The translations under genes were made by a program, and so were the position numbers. Shown here one piece after another: positions 2,462 to 21,486 of a DNA stretch of 40,596 nucleotides. The stretch is taken from the sequence record SRR31156797_6183. The stretch is one strand, 5' to 3'. The notes beneath the pieces are model-generated. The model worked only from the letters and a program-made list of their open reading frames with translations. It made no database searches and was not told the DNA's origin. The first letter of the stretch is position 1. Every line of letters begins with the position of its first letter.

Positions 2462-4262
2462 TTTCCACTCCTTTTGTTATTGTATTATCAGCACCTATTT
2501 TCCAAGCGATAGACTTCTGGTACTCATCCCACATGGTTTTGTAGATGTCGCCTTTTTGCAGCAGTTCATCATGAGTTCCTTCCTCAGCTATTTTACCACT
2601 TTGGATAACCAATATTCTATCCACATTCTGAATGCTTGTCAGTCTGTGTGCTATCATCAGGGTTGTTTTGCCCCTGCTTACTTCCTTTAGGGCTTTCTGT
2701 ATCAGATGCTCATTCTCAGGGTCTGCAAATGCAGTTGCTTCATCCAATAGAACTATTGGAGCATTTTTTACTATTGCTCTGGCAAGTGCTATCCTTTGCT
2801 GTTCTCCTCCTGACAGATAAGTGCCCTTTGTTCCAATTACTGTATCCAGACCGTCTGGCTGTTCGTTAATAATATCTCTTGACTGAGAGAAATCAATAAC
2901 TTTGTCAATATCCTCTTGTGTGACATTTTCCATTCCAAATACTATGTTCTCTCTTAATGAGCCCTTAAACAGCTTGGTACTCTGGAAAACAAAGGAGACA
3001 TTTTTCATCAGTTCTTCCTTGGAGATGTCCTTTACATTTACTCCGCCTACCAGTACTTCCCCCTCATCTGTATCCCAGAATCGAGCGGCAAGGCGAGCGA
3101 TAGTCGTTTTACCTCCGCCGGATGCTCCTACCAGAGCAATTGTCTCGCCGTGGTTTAGCTTGAAGCTGATATTGTCAATAGCAGGTTTATCGCTGCCCTC
3201 GTAGGAGAATACTACGTTTTTGAACTCCAGACTATTGTCATTAATATTATTTGGGTTTGATTTGTACTTCATATTCTCATAATCCAGCAGGTTATCAATC
3301 CGATCGATTGCCTGTTGGGCTATCATAGTGTTCTGCCTGAAATACATTGACCTCATCAGTAGCATGGTAAAAACCGGAGATATAAGGATGTAGAAAACAT
3401 AGTTGGCAAGCACCAGTGCTAGGTTTCCTCCATTTCCAATCAAAAGGATTCCCATAGGGATTAAAAAGAATGGTGCTGACTGCATGATTACAGCGTAAAA
3501 TGCCATAGGACTCTGCCATAGGAGAGTATACGCATGAACCATTTCCTTGTACTTAATGATACTGTTATAGAATCTCTTAAAGGAGAATATACTCTGACCA
3601 AAGGTTTTGACCACTGGTATTCCACGGACGTATTCTACAGACTCGGCACTCATTTCCTCCAAAGAATCATAATACTTCTTTTGGAAGTCCTTTCCCTTGG
3701 TGCTGGTCATAAACTGCATTGTAATGAAGCCCATGATAATAGGAACAAGGCTGGCAAGTCCCATTCTCCAGTCAATGATAAAAATCAGTGCAATTAGAAT
3801 AATCGGAGAGATAACACTTCCTGCCATATCAGGCAGCTGATGAGCTAGGAACGTGTGTGTTGTACTTGCTCCGTCAGTTACAATTTTACGAATTTTGCCG
3901 CTGGAATACTTGTCAAAAAAGCCAAGTGGCATAGTCAGTATTTTTTTCATACTGACTTTCTGTATTCCTACCTCCACATGAAATGCCGCAAGGTGGGAAC
4001 TCATAAGTGAAAAAAAGTATATCACAATTCCTGCTATTGCACTGGCAAAAGCAAGCCATGCATAGGGTGCGATACCGGATACATCGATAGCCTTTGGATT
4101 TGTCAATATATCACGTGTTATGTACCATACTAAAACGAAAGGCAGGATATTCAGTATTGCAGATATTCCTGATAAACCTAATGATAATGGTAAAAGACCT
4201 TTCTTTTTTCCCATATATGGAGTGAATCTCTTTAGCAGAGATTCCTTTTTCTTTGTTGTCAT
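2454..4262 (-). CDS. ABC transporter TMD-NBD half-transporter (YbtP/IrtA-like), subunit 1
   Basis: TMD plus GASGGGKT, LSGGE, VLLDE, IAHR. Start moved to ATG 4262, which has AGGAGG (4273-4278) upstream. Confidence 0.9.
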   Translation of the reverse strand: MTTKKKESLLKRFTPYMGKKKGLLPLSLGLSGISAILNILPFVLVWYITRDILTNPKAIDVSGIAPYAWLAFASAIAGIVIYFFSLMSSHLAAFHVEVGIQKVSMKKILTMPLGFFDKYSSGKIRKIVTDGASTTHTFLAHQLPDMAGSVISPIILIALIFIIDWRMGLASLVPIIMGFITMQFMTSTKGKDFQKKYYDSLEEMSAESVEYVRGIPVVKTFGQSIFSFKRFYNSIIKYKEMVHAYTLLWQSPMAFYAVIMQSAPFFLIPMGILLIGNGGNLALVLANYVFYILISPVFTMLLMRSMYFRQNTMIAQQAIDRIDNLLDYENMKYKSNPNNINDNSLEFKNVVFSYEGSDKPAIDNISFKLNHGETIALVGASGGGKTTIARLAARFWDTDEGEVLVGGVNVKDISKEELMKNVSFVFQSTKLFKGSLRENIVFGMENVTQEDIDKVIDFSQSRDIINEQPDGLDTVIGTKGTYLSGGEQQRIALARAIVKNAPIVLLDEATAFADPENEHLIQKALKEVSRGKTTLMIAHRLTSIQNVDRILVIQSGKIAEEGTHDELLQKGDIYKTMWDEYQKSIAWKIGADNTITKGVENA

Positions 4263-4362
4263 ATTAGATTGACCTCCTAAATTGTTAAATATTTTTACAA
4301 TTGCTTCTAGCAGATAATTCATTTAGAAGCATTTGTTTTACGTGATAATCAGTTTTGCAATA

Positions 4363-4690: not shown

Positions 4691-5281
4691 TTAGTTGTAG
4701 AAAAATGAGAAACTGTCCTTTGGAACTTGCAGTCCCTTTTCCAGTAAATCAGCTGTTGCCTGCAGCTTTTTCATCCTTTCCTCTGCTGTCCAGCTAAAAA
4801 TGCCCGGATCAAGCAGAAACGAGAAAACAGACAAAAGTATTTCTGAGTATTCCTGCGGATATTCACAAGTAAATACTCCCTCTTCAATTCCCTGTTCCAT
4901 TATAGAGGAGACAATAGGAGACATAGAGGTCAAAATCTTTGCTAATGATTTCTGATGGATTTCGGCGTTTTGGGGATTGTGAAGATGTTCATCCAGGGAA
5001 CTATTTATATATGAACTGTAGTAAGTGTGAAATAAAACAGCAAACTTTACAATGGGAGTACCATTGCTTTGTTTTATAGTTTGTTGGCACTTTTTTATTA
5101 TAGATGCATACTGACGCTCTACCAATGCGTCAAAGACCGCTTCCTTTGAATCAAAATAATAGTACATTCCGCCTTTGGCTATTCCTGCTTTTTTGGCTAT
5201 ATCGCTAACAGATGCAGTACCGCCAGACCCCTCCTCCAAAAGCTCCTCTAAAGCATCCAAGATTAGTTCTCTTTTACTCAT
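4691..5281 (-). CDS. TetR/AcrR family regulator
   Basis: HTH SVSDIAKKAGIAKGGMYYYFDSKE; AAGGAG RBS. Confidence 0.93.
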   Translation of the reverse strand: MSKRELILDALEELLEEGSGGTASVSDIAKKAGIAKGGMYYYFDSKEAVFDALVERQYASIIKKCQQTIKQSNGTPIVKFAVLFHTYYSSYINSSLDEHLHNPQNAEIHQKSLAKILTSMSPIVSSIMEQGIEEGVFTCEYPQEYSEILLSVFSFLLDPGIFSWTAEERMKKLQATADLLEKGLQVPKDSFSFFYN

Positions 5282-5375: not shown

Positions 5376-5389
5376 AAATGGAGGGGTAT

Positions 5390-6589
5390 ATGAGTCAAAC
5401 TATAATTTTTATGATATTAATAATATGCAGTATTATCATTCTACTTACGCTAATAGTTAAACTTGCATTAGAACTAATTCATCTACTAAAGCGTAGTCAA
5501 AGTACAATGCAGGCTAGAAACATAAAACTGGGGGTGATTGCTTTTGGCATAAATATAGCACTTCTGCTTATATATGCAGGCTTTAGCCAGCTGACAGCTA
5601 GTACTCCCAAAATTCTTGATGAGAACTCAAATGAAATGGAAAACAGTACAGTGAGTCTAGAGCAAGTCACTATAAACGGACACAAGGAGTGGATAAGTAT
5701 CCGAGGATATGATCAGAATGCTCCAGTTCTTTTATTTCTGGCAGGAGGACCAGGAGGGTCTCAGATGGCTGCCGTAAGATATGATTTATCAGAGCTGGAG
5801 AAGTATTTTGTAGTTGTTAACTGGGATCAGGCAGGTTCAGCCAAATCATTTGGTTCAGTCAAGACAGACGAAATAACAGCAGATACATATATTAATGATG
5901 GCTATGAATTAACTAAGTATCTGTGTGAAAGATTTAATAAGGAAAAGATTTATTTAGTAGGCGAATCATGGGGCAGTGCGTTGGGTATTTTTATGATTGA
6001 TAAAGCACCTGAGCTGTACCATGCGTTTATTGGAACAGGGCAGATGATTGACTTTGCAGAGACAGAAGTACTGGATTATTACAAGGCAATGGAAATAGCA
6101 GAGGATAGGGGAGATGCCGAAAAGATAGAGCAACTGGAAGCAGATGGTGTTCCGCCCTATTATGGAGACGATGTTACATTTAAAAGTGCTGAATACTTAA
6201 GTTATCTGAGTGATTATATGGTAAGCAATCCTGAAATTCATAACAGCGGGTATAATACATTCCGAGATATATTCTCCAGCGAATATGGAATAATTGACAA
6301 GATAAATTATTTCAGAGGCATAGTAGTTACTTTCAACAATGTATACCAACAGCTGTATGAAATAGATTTGAGAGAGGATTACACTAAACTTGATGTACCG
6401 GTATATTTCTTCTTGGGGCGACATGATATAAATGCTCCTACTCAATTGGCAGAGGAATACTATGAGATACTGGATGCACCGATAAAAGAAATTGTCTGGT
6501 TTGAGCACTCAGGGCATAGTCCATGGATAAATGAAAGTGATGCTTTTGTAGAGGAAGTATTAAGGGTAGCAGAAGAAGCAACTGATTAA
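5390..6589 (+). CDS. Membrane-anchored alpha/beta hydrolase (proline iminopeptidase-like)
   Basis: Two N-terminal TM segments, AGGPG oxyanion loop, GESWG nucleophile, HSGH; ATG 5390 follows GGAGGGG. Confidence 0.85.
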   Translation: MSQTIIFMILIICSIIILLTLIVKLALELIHLLKRSQSTMQARNIKLGVIAFGINIALLLIYAGFSQLTASTPKILDENSNEMENSTVSLEQVTINGHKEWISIRGYDQNAPVLLFLAGGPGGSQMAAVRYDLSELEKYFVVVNWDQAGSAKSFGSVKTDEITADTYINDGYELTKYLCERFNKEKIYLVGESWGSALGIFMIDKAPELYHAFIGTGQMIDFAETEVLDYYKAMEIAEDRGDAEKIEQLEADGVPPYYGDDVTFKSAEYLSYLSDYMVSNPEIHNSGYNTFRDIFSSEYGIIDKINYFRGIVVTFNNVYQQLYEIDLREDYTKLDVPVYFFLGRHDINAPTQLAEEYYEILDAPIKEIVWFEHSGHSPWINESDAFVEEVLRVAEEATD

Positions 6590-7086: not shown

Positions 7087-8448
7087 TTAAGCTTTTTTAC
7101 TATCGCAATTATTCAATTTTCTATCCTTTAGCTCTTTTGATATTTTTATTGCAAAGAAAAGGGTTATACATGCAGTCAGCAAATCAGCAATTCCCTGAGA
7201 AAACAACACTCCATCAAGACCGAATATATCAGGAAGTATTATTAACAAAGGTATAAGACATATACCCTGTCTTAGCAAACATAGTATAGCACCTTCTCTG
7301 CCTCTGCCAAATGCTAAAAATAATGTGGCGTATACCATCTGGAATCCAAATGTTACAAAGAAAATATTATTTGCCACCAGACCTCTTGCACCAATATCTA
7401 TGACATCCTGCACATTTGAAAATAACCCCATTATATTTTTAGAGAATATAATAAATAATGTGGACAATATTATACAGAATATGGTAGTTAGCTTTAATGA
7501 GTATTTGATTGCACTTTGTACTCTGCTGATATTATTTGCGCCATAATTGTAACCAACAAATGGTTGTAATCCCTTTGTGTAGCCAAATACGAAGTACAAT
7601 CCTAATGACATCAGCTTGGTAATAATGCCAACGCTGGCTACCGCTGCATCACCAAATGCAGATGCTTTTACATTGGTAAGTCCTATAGCACAGCTTGTGA
7701 GCAGTTGAAATATAAATGTAGGTACGCCTACCTTAATCATTTCTGTTATTATTCTCATTGACCATTTATAAGACTTTAGCCTTATTTTCAAATAACTGTT
7801 TTTGCCTAAAAAATAAACTATTAGAAAAGTAGTTGTAAAGATTTGTGATATAACTGTTGCAACAGCAGCTCCCCTTATTCCCATATTTAGTACAAAGATA
7901 AATACCGCATCCAATATCATGTTCAATACTGCTCCGCAGATAAGAGCTGTCATGCTGGTCTTTGCTGCACCTTCTGAGCGAGCTACATTGTTCAGATTGA
8001 TACTCATTACTCCAAAAGGCGAACCTAGCATATAGATGAATGTGTATTCTTTTGCATAGGGCAATATTGTAGAGGTTGCTCCAAGTGCTCTCAGTATTGG
8101 TTCAAGGAGGGGCAGCACTATAGCCATTAGAATAAGTGATAATCCCAGGGAATATATACAGGAAGAAATAGCTGTGTTGTTGGCTTCTTCCTTATTTTCT
8201 TCCCCTAGCAGTCGGGATATATATGATGCTGCGCCCTGCCCGAATATACCTCCTACTCCTACAACTATCATAGTAAGAGGAAAAGCAATTGCAGCTCCTC
8301 CTACAGCTTCTGTCGAGATACTGCTGACGAAGTACGTATCCACCACATTATATACTGCATTTATCAGTAAACCTATAATGGCTGGAAGTCCCAGCTTTAT
8401 TAGTGCTTTTGACACCTTTTCGTTTTTCATTATATTTATTTTGTTCAT
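7087..8448 (-). CDS. MATE family efflux transporter (MepA-like)
   Basis: ~12 TM; YNVVDTYFV, RSEG, LNMILD, GYNYGA motifs. Confidence 0.92.
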   Translation of the reverse strand: MNKINIMKNEKVSKALIKLGLPAIIGLLINAVYNVVDTYFVSSISTEAVGGAAIAFPLTMIVVGVGGIFGQGAASYISRLLGEENKEEANNTAISSCIYSLGLSLILMAIVLPLLEPILRALGATSTILPYAKEYTFIYMLGSPFGVMSINLNNVARSEGAAKTSMTALICGAVLNMILDAVFIFVLNMGIRGAAVATVISQIFTTTFLIVYFLGKNSYLKIRLKSYKWSMRIITEMIKVGVPTFIFQLLTSCAIGLTNVKASAFGDAAVASVGIITKLMSLGLYFVFGYTKGLQPFVGYNYGANNISRVQSAIKYSLKLTTIFCIILSTLFIIFSKNIMGLFSNVQDVIDIGARGLVANNIFFVTFGFQMVYATLFLAFGRGREGAILCLLRQGICLIPLLIILPDIFGLDGVLFSQGIADLLTACITLFFAIKISKELKDRKLNNCDSKKA

Positions 8449-8461
8449 TTTGTTTCCTTTC

Positions 8462-8598
8462 GAGTTAAGGTGCTTAACTCTTTGAATAAAATTTTTTGTT
8501 TGCCTAAATTGATTGCTTTCGTTTACGTATAATTATTTTTATAATCCAGTTGCAGAACCATAGATTCATTATAAAGCCAAAGGGTTAAGCAACTTAAC
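8462..8598. promoter_or_regulatory. Two MarR-type operators GTTAAG-N3-CTTAAC upstream of MATE
   Basis: GAGTTAAGgtgCTTAACTC (8462-8480) and GTTAAGcaaCTTAAC (8584-8598). Confidence 0.7.
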
Positions 8599-8619
8599 GT
8601 ATATTTTAAAAAATTTTAT

Positions 8620-9072
8620 CTATACAAACTTTTTTAAAATATCTTTGGATTTACTTATGAATGAAAAGATTTCTTCGCATGTGTTTTCCGGTATATCCTC
8701 CAATAATTTTACGAGTTTGCTGTTTATATTCGTGTGAAGAGATATATGCTCTTCATGAGCTTTCTTACCGGTATCGGTTAAACTAATAATATATCTTGAC
8801 TGGTTTTCATCATCTGTTTTAATATCGACTAATCCTTTTAATTTTAGTTTCTTGACAGATTGAGATATTGCAGACTTTGACACATCAAAAGCATTTGCAA
8901 GTAATGTAATATTTGCTTTTGGTATATCATTTATACATTTAAGCTGATGAATCTCTGCTGAACTAATGCTAATATCAGTACCGTAATTTTTTGCATCTCT
9001 CTCAAAATCCATTGCCAGATAAATAAGTTCAAAAAGTTCAGAGACTGTTTTTTCTTTCAAATTGTATTTCAC
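8620..9072 (-). CDS. MarR family regulator
   Basis: ITLLANAFDVSKSAISQSVKKLKLKGLV...ISLTDTGKKA winged HTH. Probable GTG start at 9072; the longer ORF overlaps the upstream gene and terminator. Confidence 0.85.
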   Translation of the reverse strand: MKYNLKEKTVSELFELIYLAMDFERDAKNYGTDISISSAEIHQLKCINDIPKANITLLANAFDVSKSAISQSVKKLKLKGLVDIKTDDENQSRYIISLTDTGKKAHEEHISLHTNINSKLVKLLEDIPENTCEEIFSFISKSKDILKKFV

Positions 9073-9078
9073 AATGTC

Positions 9079-9107
9079 AGTGTAAAGCATCTTAACACAT
9101 TTGTCAA
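9079..9107 (-). promoter_or_regulatory. marR promoter with embedded operator
   Basis: TTGACA-17-TACACT; GTAAAGcatCTTAAC (9082-9096) lies over the spacer and -10. Confidence 0.7.
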
Positions 9108-9110
9108 TAT

Positions 9111-9148
9111 AAAAAAATAGATGCACGTTCGTATTGTGATGTGCATCT
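9111..9148 (-). terminator. Terminator of the aminotransferase operon
   Basis: AGATGCAC/GTGCATCT stem followed by U7 on minus strand. Confidence 0.65.
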
Positions 9149-9175
9149 AAAATAATGTTAAAAAACAAACTGAAA

Positions 9176-10561
9176 TTACAATAGTCTTTCCAAACCACTT
9201 GTATCATATGCCTTGCCAGCTTTTTTATCAGCTAGTGCCTTTTGAAGCTTTTGATATTTCTCCTTGGTAACAGGATACAGTATCATAAACAGTACAGCTA
9301 GAGCCATAACAATAGGGCAGAATATAGTTATTATATTTTCTATTCCCATTACAGCGGAATTGCTCTGAACTGCAGCTTCTGAATTGTAGCCGCTTAATGA
9401 CAGTACAAGTCCCAGCGTCTGCATACCGATGGCTGCGCCCAGCTTCTGCAGCAATTGAGGCAGTGATGTGATTGCCCCAACTCTCTTTTTGGAATTAACC
9501 ATTTCATCTATTTCTGATATATCATATGTGAAGGAATAGAATGTTGTCCAGAAAACTGCCAGACCGATGGAGTAGAATAACAGCATTGCAACCAGAGTAA
9601 ATACATTGGTAATTCCAATAAATCTGAAGGCAAACATACCTAGTGTTGCTACGGACAGCAGGAGAATTACAGCGAATTTCCTATCTCTCTTTGTAGCAAT
9701 CCATGTAGTTAACGGAACGAAAATAACCATACCGCCAACGATTGTCCCTAGAGCTATAGGCATATATGAATCAGCGTCTACCTGCATCCTGTACTGAAGC
9801 AAGTACATTAAGTCAGCTTGTGCCAGAGATGACTGGAGCATAAAAAGAACTACAAATATCAGAAGATACTTAAATGGTTTTATCTTCATTATCTGCATAT
9901 ATGTACTGAATATTTTCTGGTTTTCATCTGTCTTAATTTTTACTAATTGTATTTTCTTTGTGGAGATATAGGCAATATATCCAAAGACAATAGCAATCAA
10001 AGCAACTACAATTGCTGAAAATGTCCAGCTGGTAGAGGTGGTGAAATCCATATTTTCAAATACTCCTACCAATACCACAGGTGCAGCACTTCCTACGAAT
10101 ATAGCAAAGGCATTGATTAATGAGCTGGTTCCACGTATTTTGGTTCTTTCATCATAATCTGATGTAAGCTCTGCACATAAAGCATAATAGGGGATGGTGT
10201 ATACTGTATATGCTACCCAGAACACAACTGCTATTGCGATAAAATATACTACTGAGGCACTTGGACTTAAGTTAAACTTAGTAAAAGCAAATACAAATAG
10301 TACAGACATTGGTATAACTGCTGACTTCATCAGTATTCTTTTGTCCTTGCCTTTTCTGTCTGCCATATGTCCAATTACAGGGTCTGTTATGCCGTCAACA
10401 GCTATGGAAATCATACTGATAGTTCCTGCAATAGCAGGATTGATGCCTGCAATGTTCGTTAGGAAAAATAAGAAGTAAGTATAAAACATGTTATACAGTA
10501 CTGATTCGGAGATTATGCCCGATGCATAACCAATGGTTCTCTTCTTTGTTAATGTGCTCAT
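9176..10561 (-). CDS. MFS transporter, glycoside-pentoside-hexuronide (MelB-like) cation symporter
   Basis: DGITDPVIG, IPYYALCAELTSDYDERT motifs; ~12 TM. Confidence 0.9.
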   Translation of the reverse strand: MSTLTKKRTIGYASGIISESVLYNMFYTYFLFFLTNIAGINPAIAGTISMISIAVDGITDPVIGHMADRKGKDKRILMKSAVIPMSVLFVFAFTKFNLSPSASVVYFIAIAVVFWVAYTVYTIPYYALCAELTSDYDERTKIRGTSSLINAFAIFVGSAAPVVLVGVFENMDFTTSTSWTFSAIVVALIAIVFGYIAYISTKKIQLVKIKTDENQKIFSTYMQIMKIKPFKYLLIFVVLFMLQSSLAQADLMYLLQYRMQVDADSYMPIALGTIVGGMVIFVPLTTWIATKRDRKFAVILLLSVATLGMFAFRFIGITNVFTLVAMLLFYSIGLAVFWTTFYSFTYDISEIDEMVNSKKRVGAITSLPQLLQKLGAAIGMQTLGLVLSLSGYNSEAAVQSNSAVMGIENIITIFCPIVMALAVLFMILYPVTKEKYQKLQKALADKKAGKAYDTSGLERLL

Positions 10562-10630
10562 CTTCTACCTCCAACTTTAGACAAATTATAGCAAATAATA
10601 TTATTTGGGTAAATCATTTTGACATATTTT

Positions 10631-12226
10631 CTATGCGTTTAGTAAATTAAATGACTTTTTATTATTGTAATAAAGAGCTTTAAATATCTTGAACTCTCTT
10701 TTGTAGATTTTTTTGTTCTTTTTATTAGGTGAATAAGTTTTCTGTACTTCAATCAGCTCATTGGCATCCTCGAGACTGTCAATAATTCCCAGACCGACAG
10801 AAGCCAGTATGGCAGCGCCCATTGCTCCTGCACTCTGTGGATTGCTGATTACTTCAACCTTTTTATTCAGAATATCAGACAGTATTTGGCATGTCATTGG
10901 AGCTAATGCTCCTCCGCCAACGAAGCGAATGGTTTTGCCTATATCCACCTTCTTTTTGCTGCACTCCATCTGCCAGCGCAAGTGATAGCATACTCCCTCG
11001 ATTACAGCGTGAATCAGCTCTACCTTTTTTGTATCAATACCAACGTTAAAGAACATGCCTCTGGCAGAAGTATCCTCAAATGGGCATCTGTTGCCGTGAA
11101 GCCAAGGGGTAAAGATGACATCGTTGCTGCCTGCTGGGACATTCTCTATGGATTTCATCATATAGTCATATAAATCAATTGCAATTTCTTCGTAATCGCC
11201 GTTTGCCTTAATTTCTTCCAGTCTGTCTACTGTCTCCTCATATGCTAAGTGTTCCTTCACCCACTCAATGCATTTGCCTGCAGTTTCAAGTTCAGCAAAG
11301 TAATTGTAGGTATCACTGTTTGCACCGACTATACCTGCTATTTTGCAGGATACATCCAGCATTGGTTTGTCAATTACGGTGGAAACCCAGCCTGATGTTC
11401 CCATATATACGTGGGTATCTTTTACCTTGGTTGAACCAGCACCGATACCGATTAATGAAGCATCTCCGCCTCCGCCAAATACTAATGTGTCAGTATTTAG
11501 CCCCAGTTCCTTTGCGGCTTTTTCTGTAATCGTGCCAGCTACAGATGTGCTCTTTATAATCTTTGGCAGATGATTTATATCAACCCCCAGCATCTTGCAT
11601 ATGTTTTTGCTGAATTGTCTTTTTCCTTTTCTTATGTCAAAGAGCATAGTAGCATAGGCACTGTCCTCTGTCATTACGAATTCACCACATGATTTGGAGA
11701 TCAGATAATCCTTTACATCCAACCATTTGTAAACCTTACTAAATACTTCTGGCTCATTTTCTTTTACCCAATTATATTTCCACACAGGATCCTTTGAGCT
11801 GCTTGCTACCACTCCGGTTATTATTACGCTTTTTATCAGCTTGCCGATATTTATTCCATCGAACTTTATTCCTCTGGATAATGCCTTGGTCATCTGCTCC
11901 TTTGCCCTGTTGTCAAGATAGCTCATGGCATTGCGGACAGGCTCGCCGTCAGTATCTACCAGTACCAACCCCTGCATCTGTGCACAGAACGAGATGCCCT
12001 CTACATTGACTTTGTCAACTTTGCTTTGCGATAATACATTCTTGGTAGTTACGCACATTGCATCCCACCAGTCGTTTGGGTTCTGCTCTGCTCCGCCGTT
12101 ATCCACTAGAGTAAGTGAATACCCCTGACTGTCGCTTTCTATTAATTGAATCTTTGACCCTAATTTAAATAAGCAAGTCTTTAGTGATGTTGTGCCAATA
12201 TCATACGTAATTACGTATCTATCCAT
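10631..12226 (-). CDS. FGGY family carbohydrate kinase (xylulokinase-like)
   Basis: YDIGTTSLK, GGGD, GTSGW, PWLHGNRCP, AVIEGV, VGGGA. Confidence 0.9.
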   Translation of the reverse strand: MDRYVITYDIGTTSLKTCLFKLGSKIQLIESDSQGYSLTLVDNGGAEQNPNDWWDAMCVTTKNVLSQSKVDKVNVEGISFCAQMQGLVLVDTDGEPVRNAMSYLDNRAKEQMTKALSRGIKFDGINIGKLIKSVIITGVVASSSKDPVWKYNWVKENEPEVFSKVYKWLDVKDYLISKSCGEFVMTEDSAYATMLFDIRKGKRQFSKNICKMLGVDINHLPKIIKSTSVAGTITEKAAKELGLNTDTLVFGGGGDASLIGIGAGSTKVKDTHVYMGTSGWVSTVIDKPMLDVSCKIAGIVGANSDTYNYFAELETAGKCIEWVKEHLAYEETVDRLEEIKANGDYEEIAIDLYDYMMKSIENVPAGSNDVIFTPWLHGNRCPFEDTSARGMFFNVGIDTKKVELIHAVIEGVCYHLRWQMECSKKKVDIGKTIRFVGGGALAPMTCQILSDILNKKVEVISNPQSAGAMGAAILASVGLGIIDSLEDANELIEVQKTYSPNKKNKKIYKREFKIFKALYYNNKKSFNLLNA

Positions 12227-12301
12227 ACTTCAGTCCTTCCTTCTAATTACAAAAGGGCAGAATTTATATCTGCCCGTAATCTTATCCTTTATTTATATCT
12301 G

Positions 12302-13351
12302 CTATTTATTGATTTGTTTTGAATATTTCATTTTGTAAATGAAATTCATTAATCTGCACTCAAGAGAATTTATTGGTTTTACTTTCCCGTGTAAACTGGC
12401 ACCTAGGAAAGCTTTACAATTCTTTTCTACTATCATACTGACAGCCTTTGCGTCATCTTCTGCAGCTCCAGTACATATAGCTCCATACCCTTTGACCAAA
12501 ACAGCATTTGCCTTTTTTAATGCTATCTCAATATTCTTTTGAGTATTTTCTACTGTCTGCATCTTTACTCCGACAATCTGGGCGAAATCATCCACCATTG
12601 GATATATATTCTTGTCTGAGTAGGATACAGCAACAGTCTCTATAGATTTATTTACTATGATGTTTTCACTATTTATTGCTGTAGTAAATTCCTTTGCTTC
12701 TAGGGATTTAGCTCCTTTGCTGTATTCCCCAAGGATATACTTAGCGTATGATATATCATCTGCTGCACTATTTCCTGATGTCTGTATAAACTTTTTTTCT
12801 ATATACTCTTTACATGCATCTTCCAGCTGATTGGCTGCATTAAAGGTATCTTCAAAATCATTACCGAAGCAGAGAGCTCCATGATTTTTTAGTATTATAC
12901 AGCTTCCGTTAGTTTTGGTAAGTGCCTCAGATACATTTGCTGTAAGTTTCTTTGTGCTTGGCAGTCCATATGCACCGCAGATTACTTTCTCATCCAGAAG
13001 AGAATAACATTCATTTACTTGAATATAATCCACATTACATGCACTTATAATGGATGCGTTCTCCTGATGCGTGTGAATTACGAAGTTTACATCCTTTTGC
13101 CTGTAGCAGGCTGCATGAACTCCCTTCTCCGAGGATGGTTTCACATCGCCTTCATACTCTAGAGTGTTTATGTTTACCAGTACAATATCGTCTCTGGTCA
13201 GCGATTGATAGTCCTTGCCGCTAGGGGTTATAACCATATTCTCGTCATCAATTCTCTGGCTCACATTTCCCCATGTTCTTGCGATTAATCCCCTAGCAAC
13301 CAGTTCCTTACCTGCATGAATTACTATATCTTTTGCTTGATTTATATCCAT
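12302..13351 (-). CDS. Class II aldolase/adducin family protein with degenerate second domain
   Basis: GNVS, ITPSG, PSSE, HTH and NHG Zn ligands; extra C-terminal ~150 aa resembling a second aldolase half. Confidence 0.88.
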   Translation of the reverse strand: MDINQAKDIVIHAGKELVARGLIARTWGNVSQRIDDENMVITPSGKDYQSLTRDDIVLVNINTLEYEGDVKPSSEKGVHAACYRQKDVNFVIHTHQENASIISACNVDYIQVNECYSLLDEKVICGAYGLPSTKKLTANVSEALTKTNGSCIILKNHGALCFGNDFEDTFNAANQLEDACKEYIEKKFIQTSGNSAADDISYAKYILGEYSKGAKSLEAKEFTTAINSENIIVNKSIETVAVSYSDKNIYPMVDDFAQIVGVKMQTVENTQKNIEIALKKANAVLVKGYGAICTGAAEDDAKAVSMIVEKNCKAFLGASLHGKVKPINSLECRLMNFIYKMKYSKQINK

Positions 13352-13361
13352 AATTTCCTCC

Positions 13362-14840
13362 TTAGTCTTCGTGAGGAACTACGTTTGCGAATACTCTCTC
13401 AAATCTTGCCAAAATGTCGTCCAGCATATCATCAGTATATGCGGCGGAGGTATACAGTCTGCTGCCAGCCAGAGTGACAATGCCCTCTGCCATGTACGCA
13501 GCACCCATATGCTCCATATACTTTTTGCGTCTTGTTGCTTCCTTTATTGTAGCTGGTATAGTCCATGGCTTTTTCCAGTTTATAGAGAAGTGAACTGTTG
13601 CAACTGTTTCCAAGTGACAGATAGAGCCTTGATTAAATGCAACGAATGGCAAGTCGTATTTCTTGATTAAATCCTGCAGTCCAGCTGTTAGTTTATCAGC
13701 AAATAATCCAGCCTTTTGGGCAGCGTTTGTTTCCTCTATCTGACAGATAGTGTGATAACCGCCTACACAGCTCAGTGGGTTTGCTGCCATTGTACCGCCG
13801 ACTAATGCTTTCTTGTGCTTTGGACCGCCGGCAATACCTGCAGCCAAGAACTTCATATATTCCTTTTTGCCGCCTAAACCGCCAGCACTAGGATATCCAC
13901 CTGCAACAGCTTTACCGAATACTGTTAAATCTGGTGATACATCAAAGTAACCCTGAGCTCCGCCCATTCCAAGTCTGAATGCAGTAACAACCTCGTCAAA
14001 TATCAATAATGCACCGTACTTCCTGCATAGCTTCTCTACACCTTTGCAGAAATCCTTGTCAACTGGTCTTGTTCCGCTCTCAGGACCTACTGGTTCAATG
14101 ATAACGCCTGCTGTACCGCCTCTTAATTTATTGCGTTTTAGCTTTTTCTCCAAATCCTTCAAATCATTTGGAAAGAATTCCTGTGTATGCTTAAATACGA
14201 ACTTTGGAACGCCGTGAGCCTGCATATGTTTTGTTCCTGGGATTCTGATGCCGTATGCTAATTGATCTGACCAACCGTGATATGCACCGCCCATTTTGAT
14301 AATGTTTTTCTTCTTCGTTGCCAATCTAGCAACACGAATTGCGGCCATACAGCCCTCTGTACCTGAACCTAACATACGGAACATATCTACAAACTTCATG
14401 CTTTCGGTTATCTTCTTGGCTAATTTATATTCATATTCATGGAAAAGTCCTGTTGAGGGGCCGCAGAAATCAATTAGCTCCATAGTCTTTTCTTTGACTT
14501 CTTTTGGATTGCTTCCTAAGATAGTTGGACCGCCAGCCTGCAGGAAGTCATAATATTTATTACCGTCTATATCGTACAAAAATGCACCCTCTGCCTTTTC
14601 TATAACTAGTGGGAAAGGATGGTTAAATGCCAGATTATGCTGAACGCCGCCAGGAATATAGTTAAAAGCTTCAGAAACCATTTCCTTTGACTTTGTACAT
14701 TTCTTCTCGAAATAATTCTCTTCATAATCTTTTAGCTTCTCTTCGCTAATAGAGTAAATGGGTTTTTGAATAAGTTCGTCTAATTCCTTGGTGATTTTTT
14801 CAGCATCAGGATAATTGCTAATTGAGTAATTTCCAGACAT
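13362..14840 (-). CDS. Class III PLP aminotransferase (GSA-aminomutase-like subfamily)
   Basis: SGTE, YHGWSD, IFDEVVTAFR, FGKAVAGG (PLP Lys); start moved to ATG 14840 with AGGAG RBS. Confidence 0.88.
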   Translation of the reverse strand: MSGNYSISNYPDAEKITKELDELIQKPIYSISEEKLKDYEENYFEKKCTKSKEMVSEAFNYIPGGVQHNLAFNHPFPLVIEKAEGAFLYDIDGNKYYDFLQAGGPTILGSNPKEVKEKTMELIDFCGPSTGLFHEYEYKLAKKITESMKFVDMFRMLGSGTEGCMAAIRVARLATKKKNIIKMGGAYHGWSDQLAYGIRIPGTKHMQAHGVPKFVFKHTQEFFPNDLKDLEKKLKRNKLRGGTAGVIIEPVGPESGTRPVDKDFCKGVEKLCRKYGALLIFDEVVTAFRLGMGGAQGYFDVSPDLTVFGKAVAGGYPSAGGLGGKKEYMKFLAAGIAGGPKHKKALVGGTMAANPLSCVGGYHTICQIEETNAAQKAGLFADKLTAGLQDLIKKYDLPFVAFNQGSICHLETVATVHFSINWKKPWTIPATIKEATRRKKYMEHMGAAYMAEGIVTLAGSRLYTSAAYTDDMLDDILARFERVFANVVPHED

Positions 14841-14875
14841 GATAACTCTCCTTTTTGATATAAAATATTGCATAA

Positions 14876-14931
14876 AGTGAGTACTCACTCACCTCAATTA
14901 CAATTTTATACCATTACTTGTATTTTTGCAA
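14876..14931 (-). promoter_or_regulatory. Operon promoter and palindromic operator
   Basis: TTGCAA (14931-14926) - 17 - TAAAAT (14908-14903); perfect 14-bp palindrome AGTGAGTACTCACT at 14876-14889. Confidence 0.7.
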
Positions 14932-15040
14932 GATATAATATGAAATCCTGCAGAAAATATTATACATATTGCTAAACTTTCTTTTTAGTTATACTCAAAG
15001 TATGTTAAAATGTGGGGTATAATAATTTAGGAGACAAAAT

Positions 15041-15706
15041 ATGCTTTTTAAATCTTGTAAAGATACATTTAACCGAATAGATAATGAGAAAAAGCTGAAT
15101 ATACTTTCCACTGCCGTTAGCGAGTTCTCCAGCAATGGTTTCAACAGCACTAATATCAATATTATTGCCGATAAATCAAATGTCAGTGTAGGCTCAATGT
15201 ATAAATATTTTGACAATAAGAGAACACTGTACTTAACTTGCGTGGAATGGGCAATGCTTCATCTGAATAAAAAAATCAGTGAAGTATTAGAAAAAGATGA
15301 TGAAGTGGTGACTATGTTTTGGGACATAATACGAATAATACAAAAGTATAAAAAGGAAAATGAAGCCTTCACCAAACTATATTATGAAATGGCTACAGAG
15401 AGCAATGCAGAATATGCTATGATTATTTCCAGTCAAATAGAGGGAATAACTTCTGATATTTATGCTAAATATATTGAGCAGGCAAAGAAGGATAAAATGA
15501 TACGGCAGGATATTGACCCTAGGTATTTTGCATTCTTTATAGATAATCTTTTGATGATTTTGCAGTTCTCCTATAGCTGTGAGTATTACAAGGACAGAAT
15601 GAAAATCTACACCTATGATGATGTATTTGAAAATGATGATAAACTGCTGGAGCAGATGATGCTCTTTGTAAAGGGGGCTTTGTTCTACACTGCTCCTAGC
15701 CAATAG
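15041..15706 (+). CDS. TetR/AcrR family regulator, divergent from the operon
   Basis: NINIIADKSNVSVGSMYKYFDNK HTH. Confidence 0.92.
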   Translation: MLFKSCKDTFNRIDNEKKLNILSTAVSEFSSNGFNSTNINIIADKSNVSVGSMYKYFDNKRTLYLTCVEWAMLHLNKKISEVLEKDDEVVTMFWDIIRIIQKYKKENEAFTKLYYEMATESNAEYAMIISSQIEGITSDIYAKYIEQAKKDKMIRQDIDPRYFAFFIDNLLMILQFSYSCEYYKDRMKIYTYDDVFENDDKLLEQMMLFVKGALFYTAPSQ

Positions 15707-15890: not shown

Positions 15891-16108
15891 CTTGGTGATA
15901 TGTTAATATTCAAATTATCACTGTACTTATATTGATTTTGGGATATTACATCAATTCATTTTTAACACACATAAATATTACATATAAACTGCGAAAATGT
16001 TACACAATGTAACGTTTGTGTTGCAAGATATGCAAAAATGGTATAATATGTATATGAACTTAAAGTCGATTTACCAGAATTATAATTTACAGATGAAAGA
16101 AGGCATTG

Positions 16109-17794
16109 ATGAAGAAGATATTAATATACGTATTTGCAATAATGTCAGTGATGATTATATCAGGCTGCACTAAAGAGTCAACAAAAATCATAGACGAGGA
16201 ACTACAGAATCCAACAGATGAGAAAGAAACAGTGACTATTGATGAAACTGTGCTGATAGATACTGATGAATACGTTGTACGGGCAATAGATATAGTTAAT
16301 GATGAATCATTAGGATTGGGAGTAAGAATACAAGCAGATAATTATTCTGATAATCATATTACAATAAATAGCTATATCGGTGCTGTAAATAATATAACTT
16401 TAGATACAAATCTAACTATGGAAGTAGGTGCAGGTGACAGAAGTGAGGAAATATTGTACTTCGAGATGTCTGAATATGAGAAGAGCAATATCGACCATAT
16501 AGCAAAAATAGAGGTGAAATTAATTATAATTGATAAATTATCGTATGATGTTTTATATAATACAGGACTAGTAAGTATAAACACATCAGAGTATGAATCA
16601 TTTACAGAATATGCAGAACCTAAGGGTACTGATTTATATAGTTTAGATGGTATAAATATTGCCTATATTGTGCCAGAATACAGTGAGGAGTCAGCACAGC
16701 AAATACCAATATATATACGCAATGATACGGACAGTGAAGTTTTTATGCTCATAAAAATAGCTTTTAATGGATACGAAATTGATACAGTATCCCCCATTCA
16801 TATACTTAAAGGCAGAGTAAGATATTATGATTTGTATAAAGATATTGATGATTTTAGTAAGAGTATTATTGGCATAGTAGATGAAATAGAAATTAGTTTA
16901 TTCTATATTAATATGTATAATGATAACAGTACTAAAAATTCTGATATTGAAATGAATGAAACTTTCAGAATATCAGCAGATGGTAAGCTGCTGGAAAGCA
17001 GTAAATATTTCGTTGATGCCAGTAAAGACCCAGAGGGAATAGACGGAGAGATACTCTATAACAGTGAAGGTATTCGTATCTATTATCTAGGTCTTGAGGA
17101 GGATAGTGAAGGTATAAATGTGCGATTATATGCAGACAATTGCAGTAGTAATAGAGTAATAATTGATGGAAATAATATTGTGGTGAATGACTACATAATG
17201 AATACTTGTACGTTCATTGAAATTGGTTCTGATAAGAAAGCATACTGGGACATATTGCTGAAAGATGAGGACTTGAATAAAGCGTGTATACAAACCATAG
17301 AGGAAATATTTATTGATACAAAATTTTCTATATTTGAAGATGGAGATTATGGGGAATACGAAGATGAAATCCTAATTATAAATACAGGTAATAAGGCCAT
17401 TAAGCGAGAAGAAACAGATGGTCAGCTTATTATGGATACTAAAGGCATAAAAATGCGCTATTTAGGTGTTGAAGAGGATATTGAAGATGGTTATTACAAT
17501 GGACTAAGTATGTATATAGAGAACACAAGCGACCAAGATATTAATATCAGAATAGAAGATATTAAACTAAATAATAAGCAAATACCAGTAAGTTTTGAAG
17601 GTAGAGTATTATCAGGTAAAAAGAAGTATACTTATATGATGTTTGACAAATGGGATATGGAAGTTAACAGTATAGAGACTATAGAGAAGGTTGAGTTTAC
17701 TGTAGCTGTATATGGTGATGAAATGGAAATAATAACGAGAATTGACAGTATACTTATCGAGCCACAGGCTATACCAGCTATTGAAATAGAATAG
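16109..17794 (+). CDS. Acidic lipoprotein with four repeated beta-rich domains
   Basis: Signal peptide with lipobox ISGC; repeated LY/LI-x3-GIxI...IxNxSD units every ~125-145 aa. Confidence 0.75.
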   Translation: MKKILIYVFAIMSVMIISGCTKESTKIIDEELQNPTDEKETVTIDETVLIDTDEYVVRAIDIVNDESLGLGVRIQADNYSDNHITINSYIGAVNNITLDTNLTMEVGAGDRSEEILYFEMSEYEKSNIDHIAKIEVKLIIIDKLSYDVLYNTGLVSINTSEYESFTEYAEPKGTDLYSLDGINIAYIVPEYSEESAQQIPIYIRNDTDSEVFMLIKIAFNGYEIDTVSPIHILKGRVRYYDLYKDIDDFSKSIIGIVDEIEISLFYINMYNDNSTKNSDIEMNETFRISADGKLLESSKYFVDASKDPEGIDGEILYNSEGIRIYYLGLEEDSEGINVRLYADNCSSNRVIIDGNNIVVNDYIMNTCTFIEIGSDKKAYWDILLKDEDLNKACIQTIEEIFIDTKFSIFEDGDYGEYEDEILIINTGNKAIKREETDGQLIMDTKGIKMRYLGVEEDIEDGYYNGLSMYIENTSDQDINIRIEDIKLNNKQIPVSFEGRVLSGKKKYTYMMFDKWDMEVNSIETIEKVEFTVAVYGDEMEIITRIDSILIEPQAIPAIEIE

Positions 17795-19845: not shown

Positions 19846-21459
19846 TTATACCATATACATTCTTTGATAATACTCATCCAGCATACGAAGCACAGCAAAT
19901 TCATCAATACATTTTATAATGCTTGCCTGCATCATACTAATCCATTTATCTCGATTATCATAATATGTAGGGATTACTTCATCAAGAAGGACCTTGTATA
20001 GTTCTTTGATATCATGAGTATCCAGTATAGTATCATCATCGCTTTCGAAGCCATCACCGAATTGCCAGCCATTTACTCCATGCTCACATGCTTCAGGCCA
20101 CCAGCCGTCTAGGATAGATAAATTTAGTACGCCGTTAATAGCCGCCTTCATACCGGAAGTTCCGCTGGCTTCCTTTGGTCTGCGTGGGGTGTTGAGCCAT
20201 ACGTCCGCTCCTCTAGTAAGTGCTGCACCTATTTCCATGTCGTAGTTTTGCAGGAATACAACATTGTTAGGATACTTTAGGCTCATAGCTACTAATTTCT
20301 CTACTATTGCCTTTCCTGTATCATCCAATGGATGAGCTTTACCAGAGAATATTATCTGTAGTTTGTTTTCTGCAAACAGCTTATCCATTACTTTCATATC
20401 TGTAAATATAAAGTCAGATCGCTTGTACGGAGCGGCACGGCGTGAGAAACCAATGGTAAGGACATCCTCGTCTAGCTTAATGCTGTTTTTCTTTTCTACG
20501 AATTTTATTAGCGCACGCTTATTCATCATATGAGATGCCCATAGCATATCGTGGTCATCTTTGTGTACAGTTATATCTTCGTCTACCCATGTTGGCAGAT
20601 GGATTGCATTTGTAATGTCGATAATATCACATGCATCATCTATGTGCTTCCACATAGCTTTTGCTGTCTCAGTGTGTAGCTTGGATACAGCATTTGCAAT
20701 CTTGCATGTACGAAGTGCTGCGATAGTCATGTTAAACGGTGCATTACCGATTTTAACCAATTCCTCTATTGTAAGACCATTGTTTGCACCCATGTACATA
20801 AGCCTGTCTATACTGTGGCTTTCATTGCCCTGAATAATAGGAGTATGAGTGGTAAATACAGTCTGCTTCTTTACTGCTTCTCTGGCTTTGTCAAAGTTTA
20901 AGCCTAATTCCATCTGTTCACGAATTAATTCAAAAGCTGCAAATATTGCATGTCCTTCATTAAAGTGATAGATGTCAATATCAATATTTAGAGCACGAAG
21001 CGCACGAACTCCTCCGATACCAAGTATCATTTCCTGAGCAATTCTTTCCTCCTGAAACCAGCCGTACAATTGTCCTGTTATCCAAGGATCATCATTCTTA
21101 TCTAAATCTGTATCCAGTAAATACAAATCGGCATTACCGAATTTATCGACTTTCCATACCTTGGCATATACATTTCTATTTCGGATTTTCACACAGATTT
21201 CTATACCTGTATCTACTAGGAAATCATACTTATATATTGGATATGTATCATATGCCTTATGACTTTCGTTTATTAGCTGGTCAGTATAGCCCTGCTTCCA
21301 CAAAAGACCTACTGCAACCATTGGGAAAGCATGGTCGTATGCACCTTTTATGTAATCTCCGGCCAGTATTCCCAGACCGCCTGCGTATTGTTTGAATGTA
21401 CTTTCCAAGCCATATTCCATACAAAAGTATGCCGTTTTGGGCAAATTGTTTTTTTTCAT
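19846..21459 (-). CDS. glgP: Alpha-glucan (glycogen/maltodextrin) phosphorylase, short GT35 type
   Basis: GGLGILAGD, HFNEGH, FTTHT, EASGTSGMK (PLP Lys); ATG 21459 follows GAGGTG. Confidence 0.92.
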   Translation of the reverse strand: MKKNNLPKTAYFCMEYGLESTFKQYAGGLGILAGDYIKGAYDHAFPMVAVGLLWKQGYTDQLINESHKAYDTYPIYKYDFLVDTGIEICVKIRNRNVYAKVWKVDKFGNADLYLLDTDLDKNDDPWITGQLYGWFQEERIAQEMILGIGGVRALRALNIDIDIYHFNEGHAIFAAFELIREQMELGLNFDKAREAVKKQTVFTTHTPIIQGNESHSIDRLMYMGANNGLTIEELVKIGNAPFNMTIAALRTCKIANAVSKLHTETAKAMWKHIDDACDIIDITNAIHLPTWVDEDITVHKDDHDMLWASHMMNKRALIKFVEKKNSIKLDEDVLTIGFSRRAAPYKRSDFIFTDMKVMDKLFAENKLQIIFSGKAHPLDDTGKAIVEKLVAMSLKYPNNVVFLQNYDMEIGAALTRGADVWLNTPRRPKEASGTSGMKAAINGVLNLSILDGWWPEACEHGVNGWQFGDGFESDDDTILDTHDIKELYKVLLDEVIPTYYDNRDKWISMMQASIIKCIDEFAVLRMLDEYYQRMYMV

Positions 21460-21486
21460 TATAATCACCTCATACACATATGATTG

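Follow-up and report, generated by a model that had tools for sequence, protein, structure and literature searches.

The catabolism of L-fucose and L-rhamnose (FucK/RhaB with FucA/RhaD) and the salvage of 5-deoxyribose (DrdK-DrdI-DrdA) use a kinase of the FGGY family together with a zinc-dependent class II aldolase to form dihydroxyacetone phosphate (DHAP) and an aldehyde. The same two enzyme families are found in a locus at positions 9176-15706 of a 40,596-nucleotide stretch of DNA (sequence record SRR31156797_6183; the whole stretch is called the window below). There, genes for a class-III aminotransferase (AT), a class II aldolase (ALD), an FGGY kinase (KIN) and a GPH-type symporter (GPH) lie next to a gene for a TetR-family repressor. 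The best solved relatives of ALD are DrdA (6btd, E 2e-21) and FucA, and the route proposed here would likewise end in DHAP and an aldehyde. However, the sugar routes are entered through an isomerase, whereas the window encodes an aminotransferase for this step. Moreover, its repressor is of the TetR type, and ALD carries, or in spirochaetes is partnered with, what looks like a degenerate second aldolase-fold unit. We propose that these genes form a TetR-repressed catabolic operon that converts bases of the phytosphingosine type to DHAP and a fatty aldehyde. For this whole statement, including the lipid substrate, we estimate a probability of about 0.45; the generic logic, in which an amine is led to DHAP, is probably correct.

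Eukaryotes degrade sphingoid bases with a long-chain-base kinase followed by sphingosine-1-phosphate lyase, and yeast converts phytosphingosine to odd-chain fatty acids. The route proposed for the window would resemble this pathway in that phosphorylation at C1 is followed by cleavage of a carbon-carbon bond, giving a fatty aldehyde and a small phosphorylated fragment. The catalysts differ: the eukaryotic kinase has a DAG-kinase-like fold and KIN an FGGY fold. The eukaryotic lyase depends on pyridoxal phosphate (PLP) and cuts between C2 and C3 to release phosphoethanolamine, whereas the window enzymes would cut between C3 and C4 with a zinc aldolase after transamination and release DHAP. Among bacteria, the SphR/CerN/SphBCD system of Pseudomonas aeruginosa is reported as an inducible and ceramidase-linked means of removing sphingoid bases including phytosphingosine (PMC11398299, PMC3900636, PMC5150637). 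The Sph proteins are unrelated to those of the window: an AraC regulator controls a cytochrome c, an oxidoreductase and a PLP-dependent aldolase, the last by prediction. SphBC is described as metabolising sphingosine, with a product that is called 'unknown' (PMC11398299). FumI of the Sphingopyxis fumonisin-degradation cluster is a class-III aminotransferase that is reported to remove the C2 amino group from a long-chain amino-polyol (PMC3136697). FumI is not a close relative of AT, and no FumI structure is found among the PDB matches of AT at E <= 1e-20. To our knowledge, the FumI cluster has no kinase-aldolase continuation.

Plant, fungal and host-derived material is rich in sphingoid bases, which act as antimicrobial lipids at epithelia, and their breakdown by bacteria is an unsolved question. 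If the proposal is true, the locus would supply missing chemistry of bacterial sphingolipid-backbone catabolism and extend FGGY kinases and class II aldolases to a new class of substrates. A module present in hundreds of species would offer a directly testable pathway, and the operator-repressor pair would be usable as a ligand sensor.

Conservation of the gene set

A search of contigs from one genome per species with AT gave 261 relatives, of which the 80 best loci were analysed. Clostridia of many families are represented among these loci, as are Paenibacillus, Evansella, Gorillibacterium and Sphaerochaeta, and their AT proteins are 67-86% identical to that of the window. The presence of the other genes was counted by tblastn with the window proteins. 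ALD is found in 79 of the 80 loci, always on the same strand and less than 400 nucleotides after AT; the exception (L075) ends at a contig edge. KIN is linked in 48 loci, and TetR orthologues with 29-73% identity occur in 40, every one of them together with KIN. Five genomes in which the AT-ALD locus lacks KIN were searched as a whole, and all five encode an unlinked KIN orthologue (56-59% identity). The distant KIN sits after a TetR orthologue in two of the five, once behind the operator motif described below; in three Acutalibacteraceae genomes its surroundings are dnaX-ybaB-recR, which is uninformative. Transporters vary between the loci: a protein of the MFS_1 family is present in 15, GPH in only 6 (after KIN in all of these, which are the closest, Christensenellaceae-like loci) and a GtrA-like four-helix protein in 10 Sphaerochaeta loci, while the others have none.

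Aminotransferase, two-part aldolase, FGGY kinase and repressor are a real, widely conserved and unstudied gene set, and its transporter is variable. Co-occurrence in other genomes had been set as a test when the operon was proposed from the letters and their open reading frames (ORFs) alone, here called the sequence-only reading, and the counts above bear it out. Full-text literature searches, with subscription journals and supplements outside their coverage, returned no description of the gene set, in agreement with the same reading's statement that no characterized pathway has this combination.

The enzymes and the proposed reactions

AT scores 169.7 bits on PF00202 (cut-off 30.5) and belongs to the class-III PLP-dependent aminotransferases. 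It shares the fold-type I class-III scaffold with HemL, and its best PDB matches are HemL structures (4e77, E 1e-60). AT retains the catalytic Schiff-base lysine (in FGK), which aligns with the lysine of these structures. It differs from HemL by about 45 extra N-terminal residues and by its score on the HemL model TIGR00713, which is 264.8 bits against a curated cut-off of 527.3. In five genomes behind related loci (G001-G005) the AT orthologues reach 257-270 bits on this model. True HemL proteins, with 546-638 bits, were found beside AT in two of them (G002 and G003); in the other three (G001, G004 and G005), which still carry AT, no true HemL was found. Where HemL has GGVNSPVRAF, the window AT has GGVQHNLAFN, and the column of the HemL arginine, a residue with a role in carboxylate binding, is a gap. 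The extended signature PGGVQHNLAFN(Y/H/F)PF is present in 78 of 78 long ATs (one with Ser for the last Asn) and also in spirochaete ATs, whereas the three true HemL sequences compared have GGVNSPVRAF or GGVNSPSRSF. In a tree of 35 rows (quick IQ-TREE run with SH-aLRT support only), a branch of length 5.0 (SH-aLRT 99) lies between 29 AT rows and 3 HemL rows. By its score below the cut-off, its variant motif and its separate clade, AT is not a HemL; a position outside HemL was a further test named by the sequence-only reading, and AT passed it.

The Pfam match of ALD ends near residue 183-200 of 349. In this part, E75, H93, H95 and H157 align with Glu73, His92, His94 and His155 of FucA, which we take to be the catalytic glutamate and the zinc-binding histidines, and are invariant in 31 of 31 sequences. 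In the same alignment, N29, S44/G45 and S73/S74 are conserved and align with Asn29, Thr43/Gly44 and Ser71/Ser72 of FucA, presumably the phosphate-binding residues. Conservation of both the phosphate site and the catalytic residues speaks for a substrate resembling a ketose-1-phosphate and for DHAP as a product. The scores of ALD remain below the equivalog cut-offs for fucA (TIGR01086, 76.6 against 400.25) and araD (TIGR00760, 83.6 against 389.1), and also below that of its best model, PRK06557 (120.7 against 251).

The remainder of ALD, residues ~228-345, has invariant motifs of its own, PxxDDFAQ and GAxCxG. An AlphaFold model of ALD reached a pLDDT of 90.4, and in it this region resembles, by secondary structure, the second half of an aldolase-II fold. 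A Foldseek search with the whole model matched only the N-terminal domain, to FucA (E 8e-15) and DrdA. In eight spirochaete loci (L081-L083, L087-L089, L091, L092) the protein is split into a 221-residue aldolase gene and a following paralogue gene of 204-230 residues, and this separate second unit is recognized as Aldolase_II with 49-61 bits. Because the second part is a separate Aldolase_II gene in spirochaetes, ALD looks like an active subunit and a degenerate paralogous unit that are fused in the window. The ceramidase-linked operons described below (L093-L101) have a single 230-residue aldolase and no second unit.

KIN exceeds the gathering scores of both FGGY domains (PF00370, 164.2 bits; PF02782, 92.5 bits) and remains below the cut-off of the XylB model TIGR01312 (308.9 against 380.25). 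GPH scores 203.9 on the Pfam family MFS_2 (PF13347, cut-off 27) and 175.5 on TIGR00792 (cut-off 231.35).

In the proposed reaction sequence, the conserved core of AT, ALD and KIN would convert an amino-alcohol of the 2-amino-1,3,4-triol type to DHAP and an aldehyde. The substrate would be imported by the GPH symporter or, in other lineages, by an FLVCR-like MFS protein or the GtrA-like membrane protein. AT would transfer the C2 amino group to 2-oxoglutarate or pyruvate, leaving a 2-ketone, and KIN would phosphorylate the C1 hydroxyl, possibly before and possibly after the AT step. Class-III aminotransferases of the aldehyde/ketone-amine type are able to form such a 2-ketone from a 2-amine. ALD, as a zinc aldolase of the FucA type, would then cut between C3 and C4 to give DHAP and the aldehyde, which for a C18 base of the phytosphingosine type would be pentadecanal. 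Unusually large glutamate dehydrogenase (GDH)-like genes of ~970-1000 residues adjoin the module in three spirochaete loci (L083:11991-14981, L095:16670-19666, L103:13337-16255). They fit a transamination with glutamate and 2-oxoglutarate, and their products could recycle the amino acceptor.

A predicted operator shared by the cluster genes

In the window alone, the palindrome AGTGA-N4-TCACT in the AT leader is not significant, with 2 matches at <=1 mismatch where 1.33 are expected. We take it to be real because it is conserved across loci and not on the statistics of the window. The 80 loci, with 1,137,362 bases in total, contain 29 copies with exact arms, all of them in or at the 5′ regions of cluster genes (AT, TetR, KIN and MFS1). 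Seventeen lie between -400 and +120 of the AT start (40,207 bases in total), in 15 loci. Nine are located 47-80 nucleotides before the TetR gene that opens a TetR-KIN-GtrA-AT-ALD operon in Sphaerochaeta loci, and seven of these nine are identical to the 14-mer of the window. The remaining three, in L077 and L078, are placed either in the TetR-KIN interval or at the 5′ end of the gene for the MFS protein. An extra copy precedes TetR-KIN in L110. AGTGA-N4-TCACT is a conserved predicted operator, and its shared positions place AT-ALD, KIN, the MFS gene and TetR in one predicted regulon. An inducer would free TetR from this site in the AT leader. A PDB search with TetR gave generic TetR matches only.

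In the tree, the ATs of Sphaerochaeta (Spirochaetota; L047, L062, L065-L070, L074, L075) nest within those of Bacillota. Together with the identical 14-bp operator, this nesting suggests that the whole regulon was transferred between phyla.

Ceramidase and lipid-related neighbours

The places of ALD, KIN and ceramidase were compared in a sample of 401 Spirochaetota genomes, 52 of which have ALD and 95 KIN. In 11 genomes, a KIN orthologue lies 2.5-4 kb from a neutral ceramidase, identified by PF04734 and PF17048 with 502-531 bits in the four that were scanned (L093, L095, L098, L100). Nine genomes have a co-oriented string of ceramidase, a 7TM/GAF/AraC membrane regulator, KIN, ALD, AT and an FLVCR-like MFS gene, which in L095 is followed by the GDH-like gene, here of 998 residues. 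Two further genomes have the order ceramidase, HAD, MFS, KIN, and in one of them (G258) the AT-ALD locus is the one beside the beta-oxidation genes mentioned below. The ATs of the nine ceramidase strings have the family signature. They are the sister clade of all other ATs, including that of the window, and the two clades together are split from true HemL (SH-aLRT 99). Over the whole sample, 80 of 95 KIN carriers hold a ceramidase and only 15 of 294 ceramidase-less genomes hold KIN, a contrast that is inflated by relatedness.

Genes of lipid metabolism also recur near the module. In L089, three beta-oxidation genes (acyl-CoA dehydrogenase, 3-hydroxyacyl-CoA dehydrogenase, enoyl-CoA hydratase) lie directly before AT on the same strand, and in L088 a FadH-like reductase follows ALD. 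Among the 80 loci, a class-3-like aldehyde dehydrogenase is present in six and an oleate hydratase in three. In L055, an aldehyde:ferredoxin oxidoreductase precedes AT.

A partner operon stands beside AT-ALD in ~22 loci, namely ~20 of Acutalibacteraceae (L023-L049) as well as L055 (8-4367) and L076, and parts of it are found in L110:3-1481; in L055 the oxidoreductase gene, the partner operon and AT-ALD are all on one strand. It encodes a second, paralogous HemL-like aminotransferase (AT2), which shares ~28% identity with AT, a transketolase/DXS-like enzyme split into a pair, two small SCP2-like proteins and an acyltransferase of the AATase/PapA type (Atlas score 0.99), the family of which is found in three more loci. 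The SCP2 gathering score was passed only in the Peptococcaceae genome (L055, 22 bits; L110, 31 bits), and a profile scan of the Acutalibacteraceae counterpart gave no SCP2 match. A transketolase could cut between C2 and C3 of 2-keto sphingosine or 2-keto sphinganine, which would explain the pairing of AT2 with transketolase genes. The partner operon may cleave the 2-keto form of bases without a 4-hydroxyl, or it may build an amino-lipid.

Two single observations concern the surroundings of KIN. In one Acutalibacteraceae genome (L108:10416-11252), the KIN unit has a divergent neighbour gene of the endonuclease/exonuclease/phosphatase family, and GDPD-family and Metallophos genes lie behind TetR-KIN in another genome (L111:9935-12017). 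The families of such genes, the endonuclease/exonuclease/phosphatase and the GDPD type, include (sphingo)phospholipid phosphodiesterases.

The nature of the substrate

A sphingoid long-chain base of the phytosphingosine type is the most likely substrate. This option had been marked as speculative in the sequence-only reading, and among its proposals it gained most, through the sister clade in a ceramidase operon and through the recurring neighbours of lipid type. Taken further, bacteria of two phyla or more, many gut and sediment Clostridia among them, may degrade phytosphingosine-type bases in the fashion of sugars, with AT, a first lipid-directed FGGY kinase and a two-part zinc aldolase that together yield DHAP and an odd-chain fatty aldehyde, while the paralogous AT2-transketolase operon would serve bases without a 4-hydroxyl. 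This wider picture is tentative, with the odds somewhat against it.

Several observations weigh against a phytosphingosine-type substrate in the window, which itself shows no coupling to a ceramidase. The first adjacency test gave no listed ALD place (E <= 1e-40) within 20 kb of a listed ceramidase. The link emerged only with KIN as the probe, because the ALD of the ceramidase operons is weaker than E 1e-40. Ceramidase was found in none of the 10 spirochaete genomes with the fused long ALD, which is the form of the window, and none was found among 35 representatives of recurrent neighbour clusters from the 80 close loci, a scan that covered recurrent clusters and left singleton ORFs outside. 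The ceramidase-linked operons form one tight clade plus one second arrangement and represent at most two independent events, and the AT of the strings is 56-60% identical to that of the window. A retro-aldol cleavage between C3 and C4 requires a 4-hydroxyl, so that this route would not accept sphingosine or sphinganine. In addition, we know of FGGY kinases only for sugars, polyols and similar small molecules.

The transporters count on the same side, and they lead to the main competing explanation, in which the enzyme logic is the same and the substrate is a small, water-soluble amino-polyol or amino-alcohol, such as a 2-amino-alditol or a head-group-derived compound, imported like a sugar. 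The GPH protein of the window is closer to MelB (65 bits), which carries sugars, than to MFSD2A (44 bits), which carries lipids. The MFS protein of 15 of the 80 loci resembles the choline/ethanolamine carriers FLVCR1/2 (131 bits, E 6e-37) and would fit small polar amino-alcohols at least as well as lipids. The nearest models of KIN are those of xylulokinase (309 bits) and gluconokinase (251 bits), with 3gbt as its PDB match, and TetR-type sensors of small polar ligands exist, with BetI, RutR and DhaS among the weak matches of the repressor. On the other hand, most loci have no linked transporter at all, and the FLVCR-like MFS gene is itself part of the ceramidase strings. The neighbours are repeatedly lipid-related, whereas glycoside hydrolases and sugar isomerases are never found within the unit. 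We also know of no abundant natural amino-polyol of the 2-amino-alditol kind. A small substrate seems rather unlikely to us on balance; if it is the true one, the genes would still encode an undescribed and widespread catabolic route.

In another explanation, KIN would act first and AT would be a phospho-lyase, comparable to ethanolamine-phosphate phospho-lyase with its class-III fold, so that phosphate and ammonia are lost without an amino acceptor. ALD would then act on an unphosphorylated hydroxy-ketone or have a role other than that of an aldolase. Pairs of a kinase and a phospho-lyase of class-III fold are an established means of amino-alcohol deamination, and the order of the kinase and PLP steps is unreadable from sequence. 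However, ALD keeps all residues that align with the phosphate site of FucA, and its substrate should therefore still carry a phosphate. The GDH-like gene adjacent to the module in three spirochaete loci fits amino transfer to 2-oxoglutarate instead. We regard a phospho-lyase as improbable.

In some lineages at least, the enzymes might also serve biosynthesis: ALD would join DHAP and an aldehyde, AT would aminate the ketone and a phosphatase would free a 2-amino-1,3,4-triol, either sphingoid-like or an aminopolyol. This would account for a YfcE-type phosphoesterase gene directly before AT-ALD in 20 Acutalibacteraceae loci that have no linked kinase, and the operon of AT2, transketolase, SCP2 and acyltransferase genes could likewise build an acylated amino-diol. 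Yet a KIN orthologue is still encoded in those genomes (3 of 3 searched), a kinase, a repressor and a symporter of importer type are all part of the window unit, and the genes of the sister clade stand in strings with a degradative ceramidase and an importer. Synthesis is in our view likewise improbable.

That the genes are unrelated neighbours, a second HemL for tetrapyrroles next to ordinary pentose genes (xylulokinase, ribulose-5-phosphate epimerase and glycoside symporter), is suggested by the best NCBIfam names (HemL, L-ribulose-5-phosphate 4-epimerase, XylB and GPH) and is rejected, since all these scores are far under the curated cut-offs, AT lacks the HemL motif and occurs with a separate true HemL or where none was found, ALD has Glu at the position that we take to be Asp in AraD, and two phyla have kept the linkage together with a common predicted operator.

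Layout of the locus and other features of the window

Protein families in the region 9176-15706 were assigned by Pfam and NCBIfam profile searches of ORFs. The features are listed in Table 1.

Table 1. Positions of genes and signals of the operon region in the window
Feature	Position	Strand	Support
Class-III aminotransferase (AT), HemL-like paralogue, 493 residues from ATG at 14843	13362..14843	-	Aminotran_3 E 1e-49
Class II (zinc) aldolase with fused putative degenerate second aldolase-type domain (ALD, 349 residues)	12302..13351	-	Aldolase_II E 5e-46
FGGY-family kinase (KIN, 531 residues)	10631..12226	-	FGGY_N E 5e-48, FGGY_C E 4e-26
GPH/MFS_2-type cation symporter (GPH, 461 residues)	9176..10561	-	MFS_2 E 4e-60
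TetR-family repressor gene, divergent from the operon	15041..15706	+	TetR_N E 1e-10, 41.3 bits
Promoter-like TTGCAA-17-TAAAAT upstream of AT	14903..14931	-	consensus match, 9/12 positions
Predicted operator palindrome AGTGAGTACTCACT (AGTGA-N4-TCACT), perfect, 14 bp, AT leader	14876..14889	.	
GC-rich hairpin and short T run between ALD and KIN	12245..12281	-	-15.5 kcal/mol, z -3.2
Promoter-like TTTACC-17-TATAAT (with TG) before GPH	10585..10613	-	consensus match only
Terminator hairpin and T run closing the operon, 3′ of GPH	9111..9149	-	9-bp stem 9149-9118, T run to 9111

AT, ALD, KIN and GPH are read in one direction with intergenic gaps of 10, 75 and 69 nucleotides. The maximal ORF of AT extends over 13362-14888. 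However, its relatives align only from residue 12-17 of this ORF, and an in-frame ATG at 14843 has GGAG 8 nucleotides before it. The most likely start of the gene is therefore 14843 instead of 14888, which puts the palindrome into the leader and not into the coding region. The palindrome AGTGAGTACTCACT lies ~14 nucleotides downstream of the promoter-like site TTGCAA-17-TAAAAT. The promoter scan as such was unspecific, with 40 sites against 30.2 +/- 4.6 in shuffled sequences. The hairpin between ALD and KIN is a possible partial terminator or processing site. For the terminator behind GPH, folding gave a z of -2.8, and 0 of 200 shuffles fold equally well. ORFs, domains and folding all confirm the four co-oriented genes with their gaps, the palindrome, the terminator and the divergent TetR gene as first described. 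That the operon has one promoter, as first described, is uncertain, given the hairpin between ALD and KIN and the promoter-like site before GPH.

Behind the operon terminator, a MarR-type regulator gene and a MATE efflux gene occupy 7087-9060 (minus strand), and none of the 80 related loci contains a match to either gene. Only in its maximal form does the MarR ORF (8620-9207) run into the end of GPH, and it sits beyond the terminator. The gene has a promoter-like site of its own, TTGACA-17-TACACT (9107..9079), and is a unit separate from the operon.

On the other side, an ORF of 562 residues at 16106-17794 (plus strand) lies in a stretch of unusual base composition, with a GC content of 0.305 and a GC skew of +0.31; it gave no Pfam or NCBIfam match and no match in the 80 related loci. 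Farther out, the window contains two ABC exporter genes (728-4322, minus strand) and a second TetR gene (4691-5281, minus strand) that is divergent from a gene for a 403-residue alpha/beta hydrolase (5378-6589, plus strand). At 19846-23775 (minus strand), a gene for a GH65 glycoside phosphorylase/hydrolase adjoins one for a protein with a weak carbohydrate-phosphorylase match.

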